A stretch of DNA of 64,000 nucleotides from a virus (lineage: Duplodnaviria; Heunggongvirae; Uroviricota; Caudoviricetes). Where the stretch lies: the IMG/VR virus record IMGVR_UViG_3300012346_000380, positions 1-64,000 of that record; one strand, written 5' to 3'. This document shows positions 2,536 to 25,899 of this stretch, in pieces. Made by a program: the position numbers and the translations under genes. Each line of letters opens with the position of its first letter. Position 1 is the first letter of the stretch. The notes below the pieces were generated by a model. That model was not told the origin of the DNA. It saw only the letters and a list, made by a program, of their open reading frames with translations, and ran no database searches.

Positions 2536-3948
2536 TTACATTGCATTTACAGCTGCAATAATCTGATCTATTTTGGTTAATAAAGATGCTTTAGAACTTC
2601 CAGCTTTTTCATTGATAAATCCTCTAGCTGTGTTAAGATCTTCTAAAGAAAATGTTTTATCACTACCATAAACTCTGGCTGCTAATGGATTTGTATTAAT
2701 CTTATTATTAACAAAAGTTAACATAAAATCTAAACATTTATCATAATTACCAGTGTTTGGATCAACTAATCTTGCGGCTGTACGAATATCATCATATAAA
2801 GCTTGTACATTGTTTGGTCTGTTAACTAAAGACTTCATAATCACAGCTTGTGTTAAGTATTGAAATCTTTTGCTTAAAAGAGCTTCAGCAATATATTTGG
2901 TTTCAAAGTTAGCAGTTCGGCCATAATTACCAATCCAACCTAAATACAACCACGTTGAGCGTACTTCATCTCTTTCTTCTAATTGTTGACTTACGCTACC
3001 GTTATCTAAACTTCTACGAGCAATATCACCCGCAAACCAAATTGGATCTAAAACCGACTCATAAGTATCGTCTGATAATTTACCATCTACATAGATATTA
3101 AATGGACCAAATTTACCACCTTTATATCTTATAACATGTTGAATATAAGCGCTTGACATCCATTTCATTGTGTTATAAGACTCTTTAAAGTCTGAGTAAC
3201 CATGCTCACCTGGGTGCTTTTGGCCTTCTGTCAAACTATTAAAGACTACTCTTTTAAATCTAACGTAATTTTCATCAGTTGGACTGTCAAGATAATTCAT
3301 ATATGCAGACTTGACTTGTAAATTACCATTTCTCAAAAGTTCCATTGGTTTATCTGGCATAATATCATTAATAGAAGCGGTATCAATCCAAGATGGCAAA
3401 GTAATTGGCACCTTAATTTGTGTAAAGTCCCAGTTATTAACTTGACTTACGCTATATGAAGCATTACTTAAGCCAACTGAGTTTGCAAATTGACCTTCAC
3501 TTACTATTTCACCTCCAGGTTGATACACGTTCTTGATTGAATTTCTAGGTGTAACTTTTCCTTTTGTTAAACTCTTAATGTAATTCATCACATTAATTGC
3601 ATCTTGTGTAGAAACGTGCTTTATTGCTCTGTGAAACGTACGATTCATAAAAGGAATTGAATCTATGTTGTTAAACAATGCAATGTCATAACCATCTTTA
3701 GAAACGTGACAGCTCATGCAAGAATGGCCGTCTTTGTCTAAAGTTGAAGTGTAGACTGTCTGTCCTTTAAGGATCGATTCGCTCATAGAACCAGAATTTA
3801 CAATTCTAGAATCCAACTGTGTTTCTGTGTTTAATTCTCCTGGGGCAACAGCAGTCACTGTAGTTTTTGGTGTAATTTCTTCAAGTTCATCTTTTGTACA
3901 AGATTGAAATAAAACTACAGCGACTAATAATAATGATAACTTTTTCAT
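2536..3948 (-). CDS. exported lipoprotein with a single CxxCH heme-c binding motif (putative c-type cytochrome domain protein)
   Basis: The start is taken at the internal ATG (MKKLSLLLVAVVLFQSC). The track ORF begins at a TTG and reads through the upstream promoter element. Signal peptide with a lipobox (FQSC). GHSCMSCHV supplies the only other cysteines in the protein. Confidence 0.6.
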   Translation of the reverse strand: MKKLSLLLVAVVLFQSCTKDELEEITPKTTVTAVAPGELNTETQLDSRIVNSGSMSESILKGQTVYTSTLDKDGHSCMSCHVSKDGYDIALFNNIDSIPFMNRTFHRAIKHVSTQDAINVMNYIKSLTKGKVTPRNSIKNVYQPGGEIVSEGQFANSVGLSNASYSVSQVNNWDFTQIKVPITLPSWIDTASINDIMPDKPMELLRNGNLQVKSAYMNYLDSPTDENYVRFKRVVFNSLTEGQKHPGEHGYSDFKESYNTMKWMSSAYIQHVIRYKGGKFGPFNIYVDGKLSDDTYESVLDPIWFAGDIARRSLDNGSVSQQLEERDEVRSTWLYLGWIGNYGRTANFETKYIAEALLSKRFQYLTQAVIMKSLVNRPNNVQALYDDIRTAARLVDPNTGNYDKCLDFMLTFVNNKINTNPLAARVYGSDKTFSLEDLNTARGFINEKAGSSKASLLTKIDQIIAAVNAM

Positions 3949-4014
3949 GTTCTTTGCTTTTTTGTTATATGTAAATATACCACAAATCTTTGACATAAAA
4001 AAATATTTAAGCAA
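3949..4014 (-). promoter_or_regulatory. conserved promoter/leader element copy P2 (TGTAAATATAC .. TTTGACATAAAAAAATATTTAAG)
   Basis: Same repeat family as P1. It lies directly upstream of the lipoprotein gene. Confidence 0.5.
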
Positions 4015-5091
4015 TTATTTTTCGTTTAAAAGAAATTTATTTGAAATAGCTTTAAAACTAATCTGTCTGTCCATGGTTCTAAACACTACACCTTCTCTAT
4101 CGAAGTTTGGGTTAAGCACTGACTTTGCTTCTGCAAAGGCTAAACAATCATCGATGGTTTCTGGCAATTTCATCGTTAGATTAGTTAAAATTGGCACAGT
4201 CTCTAACTTAAATTGATGTTTAAATAAAGCCAAGAACATAGGTAAACCATAATAATATTGATTGTCAATATCAAATGCGTTAAAGAATTTAACTGTATGT
4301 CCTTTGATTCCATAAGGATTGCCTTGAATTCCTTCACCGATCAATTCACCTTGTAAAGCCATGTTGTGATTATCATTCTCTCTCAATTTCTCTTCAATCT
4401 TCAATTCACGAGCTACTTTCCAAAATGTATTTTCTTCAGTTTCAAGTAAATCTAAATTTCTAGAGCAAACTCCAAATACGCCGTCATTTAAATAAAAAGT
4501 AGCTGAACTACCATCTAATTTCTCAGTCACGTAAAAGTCTAAATCTTCTTCAAACCATTTTTTATAAAAGCCTGTTAAATTTTGAACTCTCTCTTCATCA
4601 GTTTTTCTTAAGAATGATGGAAAGCTACCTTTAACTTTACCAGCTAATTCGGCTGGAATTGGTGGTTCATATTTAACTACGTTTAAATATTCTGTCACAT
4701 CTGCACCTTCTTCAATTACTAAAGCATTATCATAAGGTCCAACTTGTAATCTGTCTTCGCTCATTCCTATCTTATACTCATCGGGCCCTTCTAAAATACT
4801 CAAAGGCACTACAAGTCCTTGAGAAACTTGGCCTCTAAGTCTAATCGTTTTTAAACGAAAACCTTCTTGATCTGCCATTTTCTTAAAAGAGCTCTTGCGT
4901 AAAAACTCAAACTCTTCTCTAATCGGTAGAAATGAGTCAATTTCAAAATAAACGCAAAGATCTCCTGGCTTATATTCTCCTTTTTTAGAAACTACATCCC
5001 AGTTATTAATTCTTACAACTTCAATTGCATCAGCGCCTTCAATTGGTCTAATGCTTGCTACTCTTTGAATTGAGGCTAATTTTCTTTCCAT
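4015..5091 (-). CDS. ATP-dependent RNA ligase, Rnl5/DraRnl-like (N-terminal extra domain, nucleotidyltransferase KxDG motif at about residue 190)
   Basis: VTEKLDGSS is the lysine-adenylyltransferase motif I. It is preceded by an approximately 180-aa N-terminal domain (IEGADAIEVVRINNWD..GDLCVYFEIDSFLP), as in Rnl5/NgrRnl-type ligases. A DNA-ligase assignment is possible but less likely. Confidence 0.55.
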   Translation of the reverse strand: MERKLASIQRVASIRPIEGADAIEVVRINNWDVVSKKGEYKPGDLCVYFEIDSFLPIREEFEFLRKSSFKKMADQEGFRLKTIRLRGQVSQGLVVPLSILEGPDEYKIGMSEDRLQVGPYDNALVIEEGADVTEYLNVVKYEPPIPAELAGKVKGSFPSFLRKTDEERVQNLTGFYKKWFEEDLDFYVTEKLDGSSATFYLNDGVFGVCSRNLDLLETEENTFWKVARELKIEEKLRENDNHNMALQGELIGEGIQGNPYGIKGHTVKFFNAFDIDNQYYYGLPMFLALFKHQFKLETVPILTNLTMKLPETIDDCLAFAEAKSVLNPNFDREGVVFRTMDRQISFKAISNKFLLNEK

Positions 5092-5378
5092 GGTTTTTTA
5101 TATTTAAGTTCCCAAAATTTTCTATACTCTCGTACGTTAATCATTTTAATAGTGTAGTTCCAATAATCTGTTTCGTTTCTTATTGTTAAATGCAAAACTA
5201 ACATCGAAGGTGGAACATGGTTTGTTGTAGCCCATTTAAAAAGAGCTTTGGTATTTCCTTTTTGTCTAATTTTTTTAGCAAATGTTTTAAAATCACAATC
5301 CCATACTTCAGGATAATAATGTAAAACTCCAGAACTACCGTGTCCAATATAACCAATATTATATGCTACTTGATCCAT
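5076..5378 (-). CDS. hypothetical protein
   Basis: ORF track. It overlaps the downstream ligase gene by 16 nt. Confidence 0.4.
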   Translation of the reverse strand: MDQVAYNIGYIGHGSSGVLHYYPEVWDCDFKTFAKKIRQKGNTKALFKWATTNHVPPSMLVLHLTIRNETDYWNYTIKMINVREYRKFWELKYKKPWKEN

Positions 5379-5389
5379 TTTTTATAGTA

Positions 5390-6499
5390 TTATGAGTTTG
5401 AAAATGGTTTTTCAAACTCTGGTTTAATCATTTTCCAAATTGCATCTCTAATACTTTTATTGTTCTTAATAGAAAATAAAAGACCTGAATTTTTATAAAA
5501 TTTAGCTTCATTGGCAAACATTTTATCAAATTCAGTTTGATAAATTGCAACTCTATCAAAAATCTCATTGAATTTTCGATATGCATCTGCTTCTATTTTC
5601 GAGTAAGCCTCTCTCAAGGTTGTCTCTTGTGCTCTGACCCAATCATAGAACTCATCTGGCACGTCCTTTAGCAATTCTTCTGGTATCTTATTGAATTTCA
5701 TTAAGTTCTCCCAGATGTCATAAGAAGAGCATTGAGTTAGTATTCTGTGTAAAGCACAATAGTCTTCAAACTTAATTTTGACTCTCTTATTAGAAGGAAA
5801 GAATCTTAAAACGAAACCTTCTTTGTTTTGCTCATTCTTTTTCTTTAACGTCTTATATAGATCTTCATTTAAATTAAAGACTTGATTAGTTTCTACAATG
5901 TCATATTTTTCAATACCTGCACATTTAAAGAAAACACACGCCGTAGTCCAATTTAATTCATCAGTGTTTTCACCATCCCAATTCCATGAAGTATTGTAAG
6001 CTGCTCCTAAAAAGACTACCTTTTCAAAATCATACTTAACAACAATTCTATTTTCATTGTAAATGATCTCACACAAATAAGCAATAGCTGGTTCAAATGA
6101 TCTTAAATCATTATATCTAGCTTTGACCATTTCAAGACCTTTGATAGCTTGTACAGATGTAAAAGAGCCTCTAGTGGCCATGATCCATTCACCTTTATAA
6201 TTAAATAAGATACCTAATGAACCATCCATTTTCTCTTGCACATAGACATAATCAGAAGAAGTCCAAGGAATATCCTCAGCTACTTCTTCATAATTAAAAA
6301 ATTTAGGAAATGATTTAATAATAACCTCGCCAGTTGAATCATCGACGATTAAACCTCTACAAGCCAAAGTAATTTCATCCCATTTCTTTTCATATTGGGT
6401 AGCTTGTGAGTAATTGTATATGCTTAATGGTAAAGTTGGGTGACTTTGTTTAATCACCCAACCTTCTTCTACGTACTTGTCTAATATTTTCTTATTCAT
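5390..6499 (-). CDS. RNA ligase 1 family (T4 RnlA-like)
   Basis: At 369 aa with motif I VQEKMDGSLGILF near residue 100, it matches the T4 Rnl1 architecture (K99 in a KEDG-type motif). NYSQ..ITLACRGLIV lies upstream of that motif. Confidence 0.55.
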   Translation of the reverse strand: MNKKILDKYVEEGWVIKQSHPTLPLSIYNYSQATQYEKKWDEITLACRGLIVDDSTGEVIIKSFPKFFNYEEVAEDIPWTSSDYVYVQEKMDGSLGILFNYKGEWIMATRGSFTSVQAIKGLEMVKARYNDLRSFEPAIAYLCEIIYNENRIVVKYDFEKVVFLGAAYNTSWNWDGENTDELNWTTACVFFKCAGIEKYDIVETNQVFNLNEDLYKTLKKKNEQNKEGFVLRFFPSNKRVKIKFEDYCALHRILTQCSSYDIWENLMKFNKIPEELLKDVPDEFYDWVRAQETTLREAYSKIEADAYRKFNEIFDRVAIYQTEFDKMFANEAKFYKNSGLLFSIKNNKSIRDAIWKMIKPEFEKPFSNS

Positions 6500-11617: not shown

Positions 11618-12379
11618 TTATGCGTATTTTTTAATGATATATTTTATTAATTCATTTGCGTATAATTGATGTGCTTCAAACGAAGGATGATCGTCATTTA
11701 TATTTGTAATATCACACAATCTTTGTTTAGTTTCAGTTGCAAAATCAAAAAGACTTTTGTAGCCAAACGGCATAAATTGATTTTTGCATAATTTATTACC
11801 TAATGTTATTTTATCTATGTTTTCACATGTAAAAATAAAATTAAAGTCGTGTAACGTAAGATAACTTATAAATCCTATTAATTGTCTTTTTATATCCTGT
11901 TCATAATACACTGGATTATAAAAACCATCGATCCAACTCTGTTTTTTTAATTCAAGTTTATTTAAATCATTTATAGAATGTAAATTTGGACACAACCATT
12001 CATCTATTAAAAATCCGTCTACTAATTTGTTATTTTCATATACAACATACATATTAAAATTATTTTGTAAATCATTAGACCATTCGTTGATTCTAAAAGG
12101 AGATTCATTAAATTGAAATATAAATAAAGTATCGTCTGTTTTATGTGAATCGATATAAGAATAAAAATCTTTAATGATTTTAATAACTCCTGTGCCCGAC
12201 ATAGAAACGTCTATGCTTGTTAAATTAAAATAATTTGAAACTGATTTTGTATAGGACGCATCTCTAGAATTTTTATAATTAATTCCTTGGTTAGCATACC
12301 ATTTTGCTGCTTCTTCGAGGCCTCCACCCGTAGTATACGAACATCCTGCAAAATAAATTTGTTTAAATGGAATTTTCAT
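11618..12379 (-). CDS. hypothetical protein (possible SGNH/GDSL-like hydrolase; weak)
   Basis: ORF track. The N-terminal FAGCSYTTGGG block loosely resembles the Ser-containing block I of SGNH hydrolases. Confidence 0.4.
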   Translation of the reverse strand: MKIPFKQIYFAGCSYTTGGGLEEAAKWYANQGINYKNSRDASYTKSVSNYFNLTSIDVSMSGTGVIKIIKDFYSYIDSHKTDDTLFIFQFNESPFRINEWSNDLQNNFNMYVVYENNKLVDGFLIDEWLCPNLHSINDLNKLELKKQSWIDGFYNPVYYEQDIKRQLIGFISYLTLHDFNFIFTCENIDKITLGNKLCKNQFMPFGYKSLFDFATETKQRLCDITNINDDHPSFEAHQLYANELIKYIIKKYA

Positions 12380-12393
12380 GAATTATATATTAA

Positions 12394-12422
12394 TAAAAAA
12401 ATCCAGGCTTACGGGCCTGGAT
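12394..12422 (-). terminator. intrinsic terminator hairpin (ATCCAGGC-ttacgg-GCCTGGAT) followed by T7 in minus sense
   Basis: A perfect 8-bp GC-rich stem at about 12401-12422 with AAAAAAA at 12394-12400 on the plus strand. It closes the ORF-free segment downstream of the Ro60-like gene. Confidence 0.55.
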
Positions 12423-12429
12423 TAAATTA

Positions 12430-12757
12430 TAGCGGGATCGTTGTTCGTGATTTTCTTCTCGGCAGAATAACCCTCTTTTACGTCTTCGGCAATTGCTTTC
12501 GCGAGCGTCTACTTTACTTCGACCCATCCTACTTACTTCCTAATGGGGTGGTTTGACGTGTAGCTTATTTTTAGTGTTAGCCTTCACTTTGACCGGAAGC
12601 TTCATTTCGTCCATAAGACAATCCACCTTTTACCCAGTCCTCTGTCATAGTTGTTTGTGTACTTTTTGCTGTACCGATCCACCTGGTTCCAATCGTTTGC
12701 TAGTTAAGTGATTGCTTTTTATAGTTTGCTGTAAGGAACCAATTTTCTTTATATATC
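12430..12757 (-). ncRNA. candidate structured ncRNA (possible Y-RNA-like partner of the adjacent Ro60/TROVE protein)
   Basis: About 330 nt with no ORF in any frame. GC is visibly elevated relative to the flanks. It is transcribed co-directionally immediately 3' of the Ro60-like gene and ends at a strong terminator. It contains internal complementary segments (e.g. TGGTTCC ... GGAACCA). Confidence 0.35.
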
Positions 12758-14185
12758 TTAAACAATTGGAGCGTATCTCTCGCTCAAGATTGTTTTGTCC
12801 ATGATTTGCTGTGGAGATTCAATATCTCCTCCAAGTAAACTTGTCATAATTGCTGGTGAGAAACCTGAAACTAATGCAGTTCCTGCTTTGTCAAAAGCAA
12901 CTGGCACTCCACCGTTTCTAGATTGAATATTCCAGTAAACAATTTGAGGCATTTTGTAACCTGAAGACTCATACATGTCGTTAATTACTTGTTGAGCTGT
13001 TGGATTCCATGATGCTTCATTTCTCCATGAGCTAGATCTAACAGCCTGATTAAATTCCATATCTGACAAGATTAGAATTTTGTTTGGCATCTCATCTTGA
13101 GACAATTTATGTTTAGTGGCCTGATCTAAGATCAGCTTGAAGGTCGCCTCGAGATTTGTTGACATTCCCCAATCGGAACATGACATCTGTGCGTAGCGAT
13201 CTTGCAATGAACCACTTAGTACTTGTAACTGTGGAGAGTTTGAAAATGTTATAAATGCATCTTTGAAAGGACCTTCATTTCTTTCAGAAATATAAAGACC
13301 TAAAGAGATTGCAACATCCATACATGTTACAGTTTTACTACCACCTGCTGAGCAAGACATAGAACCTGAAACATCCACCACTGGTAAAATCATATCGTTT
13401 GCTCCTTCTAAATAATTAGGAAGGGCTTTCCATTGTTCGTTTGCTACTTTTGCATTTCCATGAGTTAATGACTTAGTCACGTCATAAGGATAAACTGCAC
13501 CTGCATTAATTTTAGCTTCACCTTTCACTAAAGATTGGATATATGCTGAATAACTTTCGTATGCATTTTTACCGAAAGCTTTTTGGTAACGTGCTGATGC
13601 TACTGATGGTAATTTACCGAATTCGATAGAATCCCATTCTTTAGCACACATTTTAGTTTCAACTACATTAGTCAAATTAACTAAAGTTTTACGGTATTGT
13701 TTTGGAGATAAATCCATGAATTTACGTAACTTTTCAGCATTTTGACCTTTACGTGGCATCCATTTAGCGCATAAACCATTTTCTGCTTTAATAGCATTTT
13801 CGATTATAATCAACGCATCGTTTTCTAAATAAGTTCCAAAAAGAGATAATAAGTCATCGAAACGACCATACTCTGCAATCAAACCTAAATTTGGTTTTAA
13901 GGCTAAATCATGATTTTCAGCTAAGTAAACTAAAATGTCTTTAAAGACTTGACGTTCACCTGCACCACCTCTAACATCTCTTGCCCAAAACAAAAGTTTC
14001 ATAGCACGCTTAGGATCTTCATTGAAAGCTTTTGAAAAAGTTGCGATCAAACGTTGTTTGTCTTGGCCTCTCATTGCTCCAATATTAAAGAATAAGTCAA
14101 CACATGCATTCAATGAAGTTGAATTTGTTGCCATTCCATTTTCTGTTACGATGTCTTCTTGTCTTAAAGCGTCTACTAAGTTCAT
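12758..14185 (-). CDS. Ro60/TROVE-like protein with C-terminal vWA domain (Rsr ortholog candidate)
   Basis: 475 aa. The N-terminal helical region is followed by a vWA MIDAS motif VVDVSGSMS and downstream LILSDMEFN. This is the architecture of the Ro60 (TROVE + vWA) family, whose bacterial and phage members partner with Y RNAs. Confidence 0.5.
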   Translation of the reverse strand: MNLVDALRQEDIVTENGMATNSTSLNACVDLFFNIGAMRGQDKQRLIATFSKAFNEDPKRAMKLLFWARDVRGGAGERQVFKDILVYLAENHDLALKPNLGLIAEYGRFDDLLSLFGTYLENDALIIIENAIKAENGLCAKWMPRKGQNAEKLRKFMDLSPKQYRKTLVNLTNVVETKMCAKEWDSIEFGKLPSVASARYQKAFGKNAYESYSAYIQSLVKGEAKINAGAVYPYDVTKSLTHGNAKVANEQWKALPNYLEGANDMILPVVDVSGSMSCSAGGSKTVTCMDVAISLGLYISERNEGPFKDAFITFSNSPQLQVLSGSLQDRYAQMSCSDWGMSTNLEATFKLILDQATKHKLSQDEMPNKILILSDMEFNQAVRSSSWRNEASWNPTAQQVINDMYESSGYKMPQIVYWNIQSRNGGVPVAFDKAGTALVSGFSPAIMTSLLGGDIESPQQIMDKTILSERYAPIV

Positions 14186-14232
14186 TGTTTTTTGTTTTAG
14201 ATGTTAGTTATATTAGAATAAATCTTAATGTT

Positions 14233-14448
14233 TCATTTTATTTTGTATTTCTTTTTATAAGAATTGACAGTGGATTCAGAGTAACCTACACAAATCTCAT
14301 CAAGTTCCCATTCATTAGGGATTACTGGTTTCCTTTTGGTCGTTGACAGAATGTCGTCTACATTCATATTCTCCAGAATCATGATTTGGTGTTTCTTGCT
14401 TCTGCTCGATACTCGATAAACTATTATTATTCTTGGTTTCTCTGTCAT
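14233..14448 (-). CDS. hypothetical small protein
   Basis: ORF track. Confidence 0.4.
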   Translation of the reverse strand: MTEKPRIIIVYRVSSRSKKHQIMILENMNVDDILSTTKRKPVIPNEWELDEICVGYSESTVNSYKKKYKIK

Positions 14449-14493: not shown

Positions 14494-15093
14494 TTATTTT
14501 TCTAACTCCTCTGTGATGATGCGTTTACCTCTTAAGATACGATTTTTGATAGTTTGCAAAGGCAAATCATATTTGTCTGCAATATCTTCATACTTCATGT
14601 TGTTAAGTAAGCGATCAATTACAATCTCGCGATAAATTGGTTTCAAAGATTGAATAGCCTTTAAAGCTCCAGTGTATTGACTTTGTAATTCTTCATCTTC
14701 ATCAATAAAGTCTTGTTCAGTTTTAGCTTCAGAATCTTCTATCAATTGAGAAATATCTCCACCGATAAAACCTTCATCACCGACTTCAATACCGAATTCA
14801 GCTAATTTATTTAAAGATGTTTTCTTGTTACGTTCGTTAATGTAACCTAAACATTCATTAAATGCAATGCGATATAACCAAGTTGTGATTTGATATTGTG
14901 GATCATATTGATCAATCTTAGTCCACATTTTAGTTAATGTGTTTCCTACAATGTCCTCAGTCGCTTCGCTATCTTTAACAATTTTATTAATATAAGATTT
15001 TAATCCTGGTTTAACTTTACGATAAAGTGCTGTAAAATCCTTTTCTGATTTTGTCTCTAAAAAATTCTCTGTAAGTTCTCTGTAGTTTAACAT
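14494..15093 (-). CDS. sigma-70 family (ECF-type) RNA polymerase sigma factor
   Basis: Region 2 is TEDIVGNTLTKMWTKIDQYDPQYQITTWLYRIAFNECLGYINERNKK. Region 4 HTH is YEDIADKYDLPLQTIKNRILRGKRII. Confidence 0.7.
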   Translation of the reverse strand: MLNYRELTENFLETKSEKDFTALYRKVKPGLKSYINKIVKDSEATEDIVGNTLTKMWTKIDQYDPQYQITTWLYRIAFNECLGYINERNKKTSLNKLAEFGIEVGDEGFIGGDISQLIEDSEAKTEQDFIDEDEELQSQYTGALKAIQSLKPIYREIVIDRLLNNMKYEDIADKYDLPLQTIKNRILRGKRIITEELEK

Positions 15094-20211: not shown

Positions 20212-20949
20212 CTACTTTTCGAACGTTGGTTTCAACCACATTCCATCTTGAAATAAAACTTCTTCGATCATTCCAGGATGTATGTCTTCTAATACGAATA
20301 ACATTTGCAAAGAAGTCATTGTATCTGCATGAAAACATTTAGTAAGTTCTTCTCTAATTCTTTGAGCACTTACAACCTCTTTCATTTTTACCCAAAGCAA
20401 TGGTTCTGCAATTGCTCTTTGAATATCTTCACACATTACAAAACCTTTAGTGATTGAAAATCTAAAAGCTCTTAGAATTCTCAAAGGATCATCCATAAAG
20501 GTTAACTTAGGATCTAAAGGTGTTACAAGTATCATTTGTTTTAAATGTTCTTGACCGTCAAACAAATCGATAATAGTTCCATCTTCAGCTTCTGCTAATG
20601 CGTTAACTGTAAAATCTCTACGCACTAAGTCATCTTCAAGAGTTCCAAGTTCTAAGATTGGTCTACGAGTTCCTTCTTCGTACCCAACTTCTTTACGAGC
20701 TAAAACAAAGTCAGCCACCATACCTTCATTCTCATGACCTTGTGGAAACTTAGCACGAATTGTAAAACAATCTGGCGTACTTAAAAAGATTGTAAACATG
20801 TGATGATCTAACCAATCTGTCATGATTTGAAATCCTTCTTCTACGGTTCTGTCTAGATTATCTAAGACAAATGTAAAATCAATATCGTTGGACTCTAGTC
20901 CAAGTAATCTATCTCTTACGCAACCTCCTACTTTAAATATTTTTGGCAT
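20212..20949 (-). CDS. class II tRNA nucleotidyltransferase head-domain protein (CCA-adding enzyme / poly(A) polymerase family, minimal form)
   Basis: N-terminal VGGCVRDRLLGLESNDIDF is the hallmark GGxVRD..DxD motif of Pol-beta-type CCA/A-adding enzymes. Confidence 0.7.
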   Translation of the reverse strand: MPKIFKVGGCVRDRLLGLESNDIDFTFVLDNLDRTVEEGFQIMTDWLDHHMFTIFLSTPDCFTIRAKFPQGHENEGMVADFVLARKEVGYEEGTRRPILELGTLEDDLVRRDFTVNALAEAEDGTIIDLFDGQEHLKQMILVTPLDPKLTFMDDPLRILRAFRFSITKGFVMCEDIQRAIAEPLLWVKMKEVVSAQRIREELTKCFHADTMTSLQMLFVLEDIHPGMIEEVLFQDGMWLKPTFEK

Positions 20950-21589: not shown

Positions 21590-22453
21590 CTATTTTCTAT
21601 TCAAAAGAATTCCTTGTGCTGAACCAAATACGTTGTTAGATCCATAAGGTGATACGCCTTTTTCAGCCCACACTCTTTCAGTTTCTGCTCGATATAATTC
21701 TAGCATTTTAGGTTGAGATAAAATCTCTTTTGTTTTAGCGTCATAGATAGCAGCTTCATAGTTACCTTTAGCCGTTGCTACTTTCTTTAAAGCTGATTGT
21801 TCTGCTTGTTTTGTTTGAGAAATAATAGTTGCTGTTTCTTGTAAGACTGCAATTTTTCTTTCAATAGCTGCTTTATATGATGCAGGTAATTGCATTTTTA
21901 AGATTGCAATGTTATTTAATGTAAAGCCTTCTTTTTCTAAAGCAACATTTAAAGTTTTAGTTACATTAGCTTCATAGATATTTCTGTGTTGTAATAAACT
22001 ATCTGAAGCAAAACTAACAGCATTATCTAATAATTCTTTACGTACTAATGTTCTTACTCGAGTTTCAATCAACTCTTTCATATCAACTCTATATTTAGTA
22101 AATAATTCAGCAGCTCTTGCTCGTTGTAATTGTAAGTTGATAGAAACGTCTAAGCCAAATGTTGCGCCGTCTGCTGATGTTACGTCGATGTGTTCATCTG
22201 TTGGTGAATCTTCATTTGCGTCTGCTGACCATACTTTGTGTTGAACTGACGTTGGATATAAATATACGTCTTGTGTTGGTGGGAAATAGAAAATGAATCC
22301 TGATTTCATTTCGATGTTCGGCACACCTTTGTCATTTCCGATTTGATCTACTACTAATGCTACTTCGCTTGAGTCAGCTGTTGTACATGAATTAGCACCT
22401 ACTAATAAAATTAATACTGCTGCTAAAATTCCTAAAATTGATTTAATTTTCAT
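21590..22453 (-). CDS. SPFH/band-7 (prohibitin/HflKC-like) domain lipoprotein
   Basis: Signal peptide with a lipobox (LVGANSC). A long Ala/Glu/Lys-rich helical region (IAILKMQLPASYKAAIERKIAVLQETATIISQTKQAEQ) is typical of the SPFH C-terminal part. Confidence 0.55.
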   Translation of the reverse strand: MKIKSILGILAAVLILLVGANSCTTADSSEVALVVDQIGNDKGVPNIEMKSGFIFYFPPTQDVYLYPTSVQHKVWSADANEDSPTDEHIDVTSADGATFGLDVSINLQLQRARAAELFTKYRVDMKELIETRVRTLVRKELLDNAVSFASDSLLQHRNIYEANVTKTLNVALEKEGFTLNNIAILKMQLPASYKAAIERKIAVLQETATIISQTKQAEQSALKKVATAKGNYEAAIYDAKTKEILSQPKMLELYRAETERVWAEKGVSPYGSNNVFGSAQGILLNRK

Positions 22454-22748: not shown

Positions 22749-23402
22749 TTAATTTGATAGAGATTTTTTCTTTCTAGCTATATTAAGATTTTCATAATTA
22801 GTTTGCTTATTAAATTGTCTTTCAATTCGATATAGATGATTTGGTGTTAGGCCAAACCATGGGTCCGAATGGTGAAACTTTGCAAATTGTTCAGGTAACA
22901 TATCAGAATCATCGTCTAAAATTACATAATCTTCAACGTCTGGATGAGCATCCAACCAATCTTGAATCTCTTCACCTCGTAAGGTTCTACGACGACCTGT
23001 AATTCCAACATACGTTCCGGGTTTAAACCCTAACTTTACTAAAGCATCCTCCCATCTTTCAGGAGTCGATATACAATCTTCCTTACCAAAATGATGCTTC
23101 CAAACTGAAGATACACAAATCTTTGTACCTGTTTCATTACACCAGTTACTTAGCCACTCCCATTTTTGAGGACATGTTTCCTCTACTAATCTTTCAAATT
23201 GATAATCAAATTCATAAAATCTCTTTGGCGTTTTATAATCTGCCATAGAAACTCCTTTTGATTTGATTCCAAATATTTTTCTAAGTAAACGTTTTGATTC
23301 ATATAACCAAGTAATTGGTTTTCTCCATCTTCTTTTATGTCTTTGTTCATAAAAAACTCTGGAATTCATAACGCCATCAATATCTAGGAATATTACTTTC
23401 AT
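22749..23402 (-). CDS. HAD-superfamily phosphatase (possible polynucleotide 3'-phosphatase type)
   Basis: N-terminal KVIFLDIDGVMN is HAD motif I (DxDG). The downstream acidic VILDDDSD resembles motif IV. Confidence 0.5.
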   Translation of the reverse strand: MKVIFLDIDGVMNSRVFYEQRHKRRWRKPITWLYESKRLLRKIFGIKSKGVSMADYKTPKRFYEFDYQFERLVEETCPQKWEWLSNWCNETGTKICVSSVWKHHFGKEDCISTPERWEDALVKLGFKPGTYVGITGRRRTLRGEEIQDWLDAHPDVEDYVILDDDSDMLPEQFAKFHHSDPWFGLTPNHLYRIERQFNKQTNYENLNIARKKKSLSN

Positions 23403-24294: not shown

Positions 24295-24900
24295 TTAGTA
24301 CTTTTTTACTAAATATTTTTCATACGAGCCGCTAACTCGTTGGTTTGGAAAGTAATAAGACTTGAATTTTTTTCCATTTAAAGAGATCGTTTTTGTAAAT
24401 CCAACTGGAATCATAGCTCCGGTGGTGTTTCTAATAGATCCAAAAAAGTCTAATGTAATTAAAACTGAAACTTTATTATTAATGGCCAACTCTTTTTCAT
24501 AGGATTCTAAATCTTTCCATTGGCCTCTATTTAAATCTTTGTGTTGCAACGCGCAATTAACATAAGAAAAGGTTTCTTTTAAAGCAGTTTCATCACAATT
24601 AAAATCAGCGGCTGGAGCCATGTGTCCTTTATCGTAGTCGTTGTGTGCATAATCTAGATCATCTGCAGTGTGAACATCTGATTCTACATAAAAATTTAAA
24701 CCTTGTCTAGAATTATAATTTGCTTTAGATTGTTTGGAGTTACATAACACATCGTAAGTAACCATAAGAGGTTGCTCCAGACTCTGTGAATAAACAGAAG
24801 TATAGTGTTGTTTTTTAATTGTAACATTTTGTAATTCTCCAGTGGGATTGAAGAAAAATAGCAGCCAAGAGGCTGCTATAATTTTAACAAGGGGTGCCAT
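24295..24900 (-). CDS. secreted DNA/RNA non-specific endonuclease (Serratia nuclease / EndoG family, DRGH-type active site)
   Basis: Signal peptide MAPLVKIIAASWLLFFF. The catalytic motif DKGHMAPAADF is of the RGH type (beta-beta-alpha-Me finger). Confidence 0.55.
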   Translation of the reverse strand: MAPLVKIIAASWLLFFFNPTGELQNVTIKKQHYTSVYSQSLEQPLMVTYDVLCNSKQSKANYNSRQGLNFYVESDVHTADDLDYAHNDYDKGHMAPAADFNCDETALKETFSYVNCALQHKDLNRGQWKDLESYEKELAINNKVSVLITLDFFGSIRNTTGAMIPVGFTKTISLNGKKFKSYYFPNQRVSGSYEKYLVKKY

Positions 24901-25738: not shown

Positions 25739-25817
25739 TATTGACTCAGGACCTCAAGAGCATGGGCACCACTCTTATTAAAAAGAAAAGGAACCATTGC
25801 TGATTCCTTTTCTGTAG

Positions 25818-25899
25818 CGGAGAGGACAGGATTCGAACCTGCAACCCGTTTCCGAGCGACGGTTTTCAAGACCGCTCGACAACCATTGTCCACCTCTCC
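25818..25899 (-). tRNA. tRNA-Ser (anticodon TGA), type II
   Basis: Minus-strand sequence GGAGAGGTGGACAATGGTTGTCGAGCGGTCTTGAAAACCGTCGCTCGGAAACGGGTTGCAGGTTCGAATCCTGTCCTCTCCG. Acceptor GGAGAGG/CCTCTCC. Anticodon stem GCGGT/ACCGT with loop CTTGAAA. Long variable arm and T-arm GCAGG/TTCGAAT/CCTGT. Confidence 0.75.

Follow-up and report, generated by a model that had tools for sequence, protein, structure and literature searches.

A Ro60-fold gene and the RNA on its 3' side

The DNA analysed here, referred to as the window, is the whole stretch of 64,000 nucleotides (nt) at positions 1 to 64,000 of IMG/VR record IMGVR_UViG_3300012346_000380, which belongs to a Caudoviricetes phage. Its minus strand carries a gene for a protein with Ro60 architecture and, starting 16 nt past the stop codon, a structured RNA that ends in an intrinsic terminator. 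An earlier note on the window, made from the sequence alone, had proposed that the pair is a Ro60 and Y RNA system. The locus contains the following features:

12758..14185, minus strand: gene for the 475-residue Ro60-fold protein, ATG start
13361..13375, minus strand: MIDAS (metal ion-dependent adhesion site) motif VVDVSGSMS, D271-V-S273-G-S275, read from the sequence
12743..12757, minus strand: A/T-rich box GAUAUAUAAAGAAAA, located past the stop codon and ahead of the first helix
12395..12742, minus strand: the structured RNA as a whole, 348 nt long, or about 320 nt when the terminator is not counted
12684..12741, minus strand: module 1, helix P1, UGGUUCC 12741-12735 / GGAACCA 12690-12684, loop beginning with UUACAGCAAAC (12734-12724)
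12435..12680, minus strand: module 2, long-range helix P2, GGAUCG 12680-12675 / CGAUCC 12440-12435, closing a core of ~235 nt
12674-12659, minus strand: P3, GUACAGCAAAAAGUAC, directly after P2
12591..12639, minus strand: P4 hairpin, variable in length and sequence, GACUGGG...UUCCGGUC in the window
12480..12559, minus strand: P5 sub-domain, ACGUC 12559-12555 / GACGU 12484-12480, enclosing P6 and two GNCGAAG motifs
12524-12521 / 12509-12506, minus strand: P6, GGUC / GAC(G)
12456..12467, minus strand: P7 hairpin, UUCU-GCCG-AGAA, with an invariant GCCG loop
12395..12423, minus strand: intrinsic terminator AAUCCAGGC-CCGUAA-GCCUGGAUU followed by U7, 9-bp stem 12423-12400 with five GC pairs

The protein has, by structure comparison, the architecture of Ro60: a HEAT-like helical ring (about residues 1-255) is followed by a C-terminal vWA domain with a MIDAS, in agreement with the long helical N-terminus and vWA domain described in the earlier note. 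The MIDAS is complete, with residues D271, S273, S275, T343, and D375 invariant in an alignment of 68 diverse homologs, and the segment encoded by 13361-13375 aligns with the MIDAS region of Ro60 when the family profile is compared to PDB sequences. The same profile reaches Ro60 of the PDB only at E-values of 0.03-0.05, over the vWA segment. Ro60 binds Y RNA at the outer surface of its ring and the ends of misfolded RNA in the central cavity; in this regard, the helical domain of the window protein contains the conserved arginines and lysines R69, R72, R78, R108, K141, R145, and R165. Along the protein, a match to the Pfam family DUF2828 (PF11443; E-value 5.1e-35, 121.6 bits, cut-off 29) precedes one to DUF7788 (PF25043; 1.8e-53, 181.5 bits, cut-off 27.1), both above the curated cut-offs, and residues 10-472 match PHROG 850, annotated as 'RNA-binding protein' (7.1e-158). 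Clustering of the DUF2828 family at 50% identity leaves 6,603 representatives, and 710 GenBank phage records contain a member. Its carriers include Felixounaviruses, KVP40-like and other T4-like phages, phages of Listeria, Staphylococcus, Campylobacter, Enterococcus, and Bacillus, and mycobacteriophages, in which the members are already annotated as 'Ro-like RNA binding protein'. The first homolog search provided only relatives with at least 84% identity, and the diverse alignment was built from a search of family representatives.

The stop codon of the gene (12758) and the ATG of the next gene (12379) are separated by 378 nt with 4-9 stops in each minus-strand frame. The segment is poor in open reading frames (ORFs), but the absence of an ORF in any frame reported in the earlier note is slightly overstated, since mechanical ORFs of 45 residues on the minus strand and 52 and 89 residues on the plus strand are present. 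The elevated GC content noticed previously was reproduced: it is 0.42 for positions 12395-12742 and 0.44 for the core, compared to 0.32 for the window, 0.36 for the DUF2828 gene, and 0.26 for the downstream gene.

The RNA alignment is composed of invariant blocks that alternate with variable, indel-rich stretches. Helices were derived from 33 aligned sequences using RNAalifold and our own covariation scan, which is the comparative folding with phage homologs that the earlier note had recommended. Seven helices with 39 pairs were scored: P1, P2, P3, P5, P6, P7, and the terminator. Standard pairs are found in 94.6% of the alignment cells, compared to 30-45% when the pairing partners are slid by 1-3 columns. 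Compensatory double changes affect 19 pairs, in contrast to 2-6 in the slid controls, and the covariation score is 0.254, whereas the controls reach at most 0.052; none of 500 shuffles attained the observed values. The segment is a genuine conserved structured RNA, and the lack of conserved structure, which the earlier note had listed as an argument against its proposal, is not what the alignment displays. The transcribed strand is that of the gene because of the G-U pairs and the terminator.

Helix P1 contains seven pairs, three of them compensatory, with 99.6% of cells paired. The six pairs of P2 (two compensatory, 99.5% paired) include a C-G pair that is replaced by A-U in eight sequences and by G-C in one, and a U-A pair that is replaced by A-U in two. 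A G-C pair of P3 changes to A-U in three sequences, and a U-A pair of P6 to C-G in four. P5, which was found by the covariation scan, has five pairs, three of them compensatory, and an A-U pair that becomes C-G in 11 sequences. The alternation of ACGU and UAUA was considered as a kissing-dimer signal and rejected, because it is the covariation of P5. All four pairs of P7 are compensatory over five versions of the stem, with 97.7% of cells paired. The terminator, whose hairpin and T7 run had been recognized in the earlier note, was also found by a terminator scan; five of its nine pairs have compensatory changes, and its loop varies from 4 to 23 nt among the relatives. The P4 sequences align poorly, yet each of the 27 distinct variants folds into a hairpin, and at least 10 of the closing helices are unrelated to one another. 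Many P4 variants contain an internal loop, GUGGA(G/U) ... (A/U)UGAAGC, which is absent from L030-type variants; judged by eye, it is kink-turn-like, with tandem G-A pairs and a 3-nt bulge. The ~235-nt core enclosed by P2 is multi-helical, contains long invariant single-stranded blocks, and has no known relative.

Homologs of the protein are encoded by 277 IMG/VR contigs, of which the best 80 were examined (the loci are numbered from L001). Throughout loci L001-L052, whose protein identity goes down to ~63%, BLAST and nhmmer detected the full-length RNA on the same strand downstream of the gene. The nhmmer profiles, including iterated ones, stop at about this identity. Ten further contigs with a full-length RNA were found by motif. 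Overall, the RNA is conserved in more than 50 metagenomic phage contigs, and the window itself contains a single copy. An IMG/VR search with the RNA motif only, independent of the protein, identified 47 contigs, in which the DUF2828 gene lies upstream wherever the upstream sequence suffices. Megablast and blastn searches of GenBank phages revealed no DNA similar to the locus or the RNA; the lineage is known only from metagenomes.

In the window, the RNA starts 16 nt past the stop codon on the strand of the gene, and the order of the two is the same in all close relatives. In at least 14 loci, an ORF of ~121 residues sits between the gene and the RNA, and both the RNA and the A/T box are unaltered. 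This ORF, which has no recognized function, is located at 4455-4820 in L001 and is also present in L002, L005, L006, L013, L014, L019, L025, L030-L034, L037, L038, L054, and L136. The downstream gene of 253 residues is present in none of the 80 loci and the upstream sigma factor gene in three. Since the flanking genes are not conserved and the inserted ORF leaves the RNA unchanged, the gene and the RNA form a mobile pair. The A/T box, kept in both arrangements, may represent either a minimal promoter or a 5' leader that is unpaired. A candidate T4-type late promoter (TATAAATA) is located upstream of the RNA in a register that varies among the loci.

Stem-CAGCAA modules beside distant homologs

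The window RNA contains two modules in which a closing helix is followed by 3 nt and CAGCAAA: P1 is followed by UUA-CAGCAAAC and P2 by GUA-CAGCAAAAA. The same feature was noticed by eye in different RNAs of distant relatives, and the module was then defined strictly as a stem of at least 7 bp, 1-3 nt, and CAGCAA at the 5' start of a loop that is closed within 140 nt. By the module finder, P1 is a strict module (12742-12683), and P2 fits with a 6-bp stem. A census was performed on 27 non-redundant distant loci with 24-62% protein identity, in which the flank was defined as the same strand within 1.3 kb of the gene. The 65 kb of gene-proximal flank contained 40 strict modules (0.62 per kb), 25-fold the density of the other 281 kb, in which there were seven (0.025 per kb); shuffled flanks contained 1.3 modules on average and at most five. 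At least one strict module is present in 21 of the 27 loci. The loci with modules belong to Felixounavirus, to phages of Listeria, Staphylococcus, Campylobacter, Enterococcus, and Bacillus, and to mycobacteriophages, and the module consensus is U-A-CAGCAA-A.

The position of the modules relative to the gene differs among lineages. Mycobacteriophage Lolly9 and Staphylococcus phage S-CoN_Ph10 each have three tandem modules directly behind the gene, whereas Listeria phage LMTA-148 has three directly in front of it and Campylobacter phage F370 has two in front of it. In Escherichia phage allfine, a Felixounavirus (L139), four modules are located in unannotated gaps of the tRNA array after the gene (5713-5778, 5880-5974, 6266-6333, and 6353-6478). 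The modules of S-CoN_Ph10 (L143, 4023-4230) overlap two tiny coding sequences annotated as 'hypothetical protein' (4010-4099 and 4162-4263), which are probably mis-annotated RNA. A covariance model of the 5' domain of the window RNA provided weak matches (E-values 1e-3 to 7e-2) in the tRNA-array clade, where they are positionally consistent, and in five loci derived from metagenome-assembled genomes (MAGs), where they are upstream of the gene. The model misses S13, KVP40, allfine, and Lolly9, and it was the explicit module search that generalized instead.

YrlA-type Y RNAs are encoded beside several homologs of the window protein. The YrlA model matches twice beside the L127 gene (59% identity; E-values 3e-9 and 6e-8, interleaved with tRNAs), once in an unannotated gap beside the Lolly9 gene (33-35% identity; 4e-5), and twice beside the gene of Enterococcus phage Porthos (32% identity; 7e-8 and 5e-4). 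In four of these five matches, spread over the three lineages, the tRNA-mimic domain is located inside a stem-CAGCAA module. The presence of CAGCAA around tRNA mimics, at the position of the Ro-binding GNCGAA motif of YrlA, is the strongest argument that the module is the part recognized by the protein and that the enclosed part is an exchangeable effector.

Two other roles of the module sequence were considered and rejected. For the idea of antisense targets, WWCAGCAAA is not enriched in the window (six occurrences, 6.4 expected), and the CAGCAAA loops are a misfit for anticodon-loop mimicry, having no U33-like position.

Several loci display further RNA elements beside the homolog. In L055 (4399-4972) and at equivalent positions in L059, L072, L075, and L080, the stretch from the gene to the tRNA array contains two structured RNAs in succession. 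A 14-bp stem, GGAAAAAUUGGUUU / AAACCAAUUUUUCC, closes the first of them, and a conserved sigma-70-like promoter, CTTGACT-17-TAATTT, separates the two. L072 and L075 have an extra inserted hairpin in this region. In Vibrio phage KVP40 (L125, 2456-2480), UUUUACAGCAAUUU is located in the 5' untranslated region (UTR) of the homolog, closely behind a promoter of the form TTTACA-16-TATAAT. This sequence may serve as an autoregulatory site or may be a chance occurrence, and the KVP40 locus has neither a strict module nor a downstream gap. Listeria phage LMTA-148 (L142) contains, at 960-1511 on the plus strand, a match to ROOL RNA (RF03087; 90 bits, E-value 4e-17, narrowly short of the gathering score, 99.1). 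The match is located beside tRNAs, with the DUF2828 gene about 1 kb farther downstream. Two RtcB ligase genes are encoded in this phage 1.3 kb downstream of the DUF2828 homolog (5343-6497).

Relation to Y RNAs and interpretation of the locus

YrlA RNAs are encoded on the same strand as, and at most 4 kb from, the Ro60 gene, carry GNCGAAN0-1G near their 5' end, mimic tRNA through T and D arms that are nearly invariant, and are 80-130 nt long (PMC4201824). The window RNA clearly agrees with this description only in its same-strand location within 4 kb of the gene. It is about three times too long, at about 320 nt, or ~330-348 nt, and tRNA-like arms are absent: ARAGORN is silent at the RNA, and no T-loop or D-loop consensus is visible in its sequence. 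A closing long-range helix is present as P2, but around the ~235-nt multi-helix core, and the position beside the closing stem where YrlA has GNCGAA is held by UACAGCAA. Two exact copies of the YrlA motif, GUCGAAG (12523-12517) and GCCGAAG (12490-12484), are invariant in the close family. Rfam matches at E≤10 are noise only, those to L10-leader, S774, and ar9 being to the terminator hairpin. The window RNA is not a canonical Y RNA, and this part of the earlier proposal was not borne out.

The protein fold, the RNA structure, the genetic linkage of the two, the module signature, and the YrlA-type RNAs beside homologous genes are observed. The explanation that we consider probable is that the locus is a Ro60-like and Y-RNA-like ribonucleoprotein cassette, composed of a Ro60-fold gene and a same-strand gene for a partner non-coding RNA in an RNA-repair neighbourhood. 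The RNA would consist of two 'stem + UACAGCAAA' modules, the first a simple P1 hairpin and the second formed by P2 closing the P3-P7 core. By analogy with Ro60 and its Y RNAs, the protein would bind the closing stem and the adjacent UACAGCAA nucleotides, and the enclosed ~235-nt core would be the effector part, at the place where relatives have the tRNA-mimic domain. The two modules could mean two copies of the protein, or one site per face. The core may recruit or gate another factor, as a Y RNA tethers Ro60 to PNPase, and the ribonucleoprotein may function in RNA surveillance, repair, or decay during infection. A plausible purpose, next to RNA ligases, a phosphatase, and a CCA-adding enzyme, would be to blunt host defences that target RNA or tRNA.

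Several results weigh against this explanation. A TROVE (PF05731) match is absent from the hmmscan of the protein against Pfam-A (E≤1). The earlier note had named this outcome as a reason to reject a Ro60 protein; the assignment to TROVE by sequence was lost, but we consider the objection overridden because of the fold evidence. No match to the YrlA (RF02553), Y_RNA (RF00019), or tRNA models was obtained at E≤10 for positions 12200-14400 on either strand, in the Rfam search that the earlier note had suggested; RNAs of this type are within reach of the search, since the YrlA model does match beside the homologous genes of L127, Lolly9, and Porthos. The two GNCGAAG copies are internal, in the 3' half of the RNA inside P5, and not near its 5' end, and they are degenerate in L012, L041, L046, L047, and L049. 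Strict modules are absent from six of the 27 distant loci, including KVP40 and phiAS5, and modules composed of A-U pairs only arise by chance about 0.05 times per kb in the AT-rich window. The single-sequence folding energy of the RNA is not unusual (z = -0.29); it is uninformative, and the comparative evidence is thus decisive for the RNA being real. A promoter and terminator scan found neither a sigma-70-like promoter nor a terminator between the stop codon and the RNA, and therefore the RNA could be merely the 3' UTR of the mRNA.

This last point leads to the alternative that the element is no separate trans-acting partner and acts in cis, as a structured 3' UTR of the DUF2828 mRNA, for example as a 3' stabilizer or as an autoregulatory operator to which the encoded protein binds. 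The only terminator lies after the RNA, and the UACAGCAA in the KVP40 5' UTR would suit autoregulation. However, the RNA and the A/T box are unchanged in the loci where the 121-residue ORF intervenes, the modules of other lineages precede the gene or reside in tRNA arrays, and the L055 clade has a conserved sigma-70-like promoter before the second RNA. Homologous positions carry YrlA-type RNAs, which are trans-acting in bacteria, and seven conserved helices with long invariant single-stranded blocks exceed the needs of a stabilizer. We therefore regard a purely cis-acting element as unlikely; it also overlaps with the cassette explanation, since a co-transcribed RNA could still be processed into a partner RNA.

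We give somewhat less credence to the possibility that the stem-CAGCAA RNAs belong to a phage small-RNA or tRNA island and are recognized by another factor (for instance, a host RNase, some processing enzyme, or another phage protein), with DUF2828 as a mere frequent neighbour. The gene does border tRNA arrays in Felixounavirus, in Bacillus, Enterococcus, and Campylobacter phages, and in the L055 clade, and another large RNA, ROOL, is nearby in the Listeria phage. Against this, the window RNA abuts the DUF2828 gene more than 10 kb from any tRNA gene, and in Lolly9 and the Staphylococcus phage it is the gene, not the tRNAs, that the modules abut. Arrays distant from the gene, namely the distal part of the allfine array, the seven tRNAs of L132, and the arrays of the L055 clade, are without modules, and proteins with the RNA-binding fold seen here are known to have adjacent RNAs as partners.

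That the RNA is a leader, riboswitch, or attenuator controlling the downstream gene (11618-12379) through the terminator at 12395-12423 is highly improbable. The terminator ends 15 nt before the next ATG and weakly resembles the Rfam L10 leader (23 bits, E-value 0.48), but this match is far under the gathering score and is essentially a hairpin with a U-run, no antiterminator pairing is conserved, and the downstream gene has no homolog in the 80 related loci while the RNA is constant. Least credible is that the segment codes for a small protein or functions as DNA, for instance as an origin or a packaging site: the 45-residue ATG ORF (12390-12527) has a 38-residue counterpart in L001, but ATG-TAG breaks it in L003, L011, L015, and L017 and rules it out as a gene, the divergent group has no ATG, the indels are not multiples of three, and the compensatory changes include G-U pairs that work on one strand only, as does the terminator.

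The proposed Ro60-like cassette has much in common with the bacterial and phage Ro60 (Rsr)-YrlA system (PMC4201824; RF02553): the ring-plus-vWA fold, an adjacent same-strand RNA within 4 kb, a terminal stem around an effector domain, a short conserved motif on the 5' side of the stem, linkage to RNA repair, and YrlA-model matches alongside relatives of the protein. It differs in that the window protein is DUF2828/DUF7788 by sequence and not TROVE, and in that the RNA is ~320 nt long, has no T and D arms and no YrlA match, contains two modules per transcript, and has UACAGCAA instead of GNCGAA(N)G after the stem. The earlier idea of a Ro60 and Y RNA system is partly supported: relatives of the protein have YrlA-type RNAs beside them, and in the window the protein would, by analogy, bind a different RNA.

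Ro60 of Thermus phage phiLo binds adjacent Yrl RNAs and the host PNPase and forms dimers on Yrl2 (PMC12135203). Unlike the window protein, phiLo Ro60 (PDB: 9KOP, 9L5Y, with Yrl1 and Yrl2) is a TROVE-domain protein, with 16-17% identity to it, and the phiLo RNAs are short, located upstream of the gene, carry a CGAA motif, and have nothing equivalent to the 235-nt core. Escherichia phage Bas63 gp130 is Ro60-like by structure, is encoded directly upstream of a tRNA array, and counters the Ppl defence (PMC11482910, PhageMaP preprint); the authors of PMC11482910 proposed that some of the 'tRNAs' near gp130 are Y RNAs. No functional phenotype other than this anti-Ppl effect is known for proteins of this kind. 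The allfine homolog (44% identity) has the layout of Bas63 gp130, and genus and layout suggest that gp130 is a member of the family. The Bas63 study identified no partner RNA, whereas here stem-CAGCAA modules were located in the gaps of the Felixounavirus array, and those of allfine are candidate partner RNAs for the gp130-type anti-Ppl protein. In LeBron, overexpression of the Ro-like protein is toxic, and its gene is accompanied by those for an RNA ligase and a polynucleotide kinase (PNK) (PMC13148394). ROOL (RF03087) and GOLLD are, like the window RNA, large multi-helix phage non-coding RNAs of unknown function, often located in small-RNA islands. However, they are 500-800 nt long and have no dedicated neighbour protein, whereas the window RNA is strictly coupled to one protein gene, and there is no sequence or structure match between them.

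Phage Ro60-Y RNA systems, the 'Ro-like' annotation of the family, and the suggestion of Y RNAs among phage tRNAs are already known. Judged by Rfam 15 and the literature that could be searched, the ~320-nt RNA family, the stem-UACAGCAA signature beside DUF2828 genes, and the replacement of the tRNA mimic by a different core are new. Ro60-Y RNA particles are a classic yet poorly understood RNA-surveillance machine and a major human autoantigen, and the study of phage Ro60 is only beginning, with the anti-defence phenotype of Bas63 gp130 in 2024 and phiLo in 2025. Our results suggest that a very large, widely annotated DUF family is a Ro60-fold branch with dedicated neighbouring RNAs, that these RNAs are recognizable by a simple sequence and structure signature that Rfam does not contain, and that their effector part is exchangeable, being a tRNA mimic in some lineages and a new 235-nt core here. 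They also provide concrete testable RNAs for model phages with existing genetics and flag probable mis-annotations in the form of tiny 'hypothetical proteins' laid over module RNAs. It is conceivable, though we hold this only tentatively, that DUF2828 is a second, mostly phage-borne branch of Ro60-like ribonucleoproteins, in which a portable stem-UACAGCAA code replaces GNCGAA; it would frame tRNA mimics in some phages and, in the lineage of the window, the new ~235-nt core that replaced the tRNA mimic. If so, the core would represent a new RNA effector domain, which might serve as a decoy for a host nuclease or a defence protein, or as a scaffold, and would provide the phage with an RNA-based counter-defence.

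Neighbouring genes and further RNA elements

The window belongs to a T4-related myovirus, as it encodes a tail sheath protein, large terminase, major head protein, portal, prohead protease, gp44-type clamp loader, and gp46-type SbcC. RNA-repair genes are located within ~10 kb of the DUF2828 gene and RNA locus. The RNA ligases, the phosphatase, and the CCA-adding enzyme listed in the earlier note were found; the PNK was not, among the 40 window ORFs scanned. Four tRNAs (ARAGORN) and phosphoesterases are additionally encoded. The neighbouring genes are:

4015-5091 and 5390-6499: two RNA ligases
11618-12379: downstream gene, 253 residues, beginning 15 nt past the terminator
14494-15093: ECF-like sigma factor, directly upstream of the Ro-like gene, common only to L003, L004, and L039
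16868-17662: Fpg/Nei-type DNA glycosylase
20212-20949: CCA-adding/poly(A)-polymerase head-domain protein
21590-22453: SPFH/Band-7 protein
22749-23402: HAD 'Swiss Army Knife RNA repair' phosphatase
24295-24900: non-specific DNA/RNA endonuclease

Unusually long 'tRNA' genes of 111-123 nt with an anticodon-arm insertion of ~45 nt are present in S13 (L126, 4356-4476 and 4486-4598), phiAS5 (L141, 6751-6868 and 7019-7136), L075 (6363-6485), and L080 (6363-6473). They are not called as tRNAs by ARAGORN and may be tRNA mimics rather than decoding tRNAs. Both S13 inserts contain ACGCAAACUGAYAAGUUUGUAUUCAGCA. In the MAG contig L128, a tRNA with a CUA anticodon (amber-suppressor type; 'Pyl' in ARAGORN) is located at 3894-3968, 14 nt after the DUF2828 gene. 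Within the window, a hairpin AAAAGGAA|UCAGCAAUGG|UUCUUUUU at 25780-25811 on the minus strand lies immediately 3' of tRNA-Ser (25817-25899); it may be a plain terminator that contains the CAGCAA hexamer by chance.

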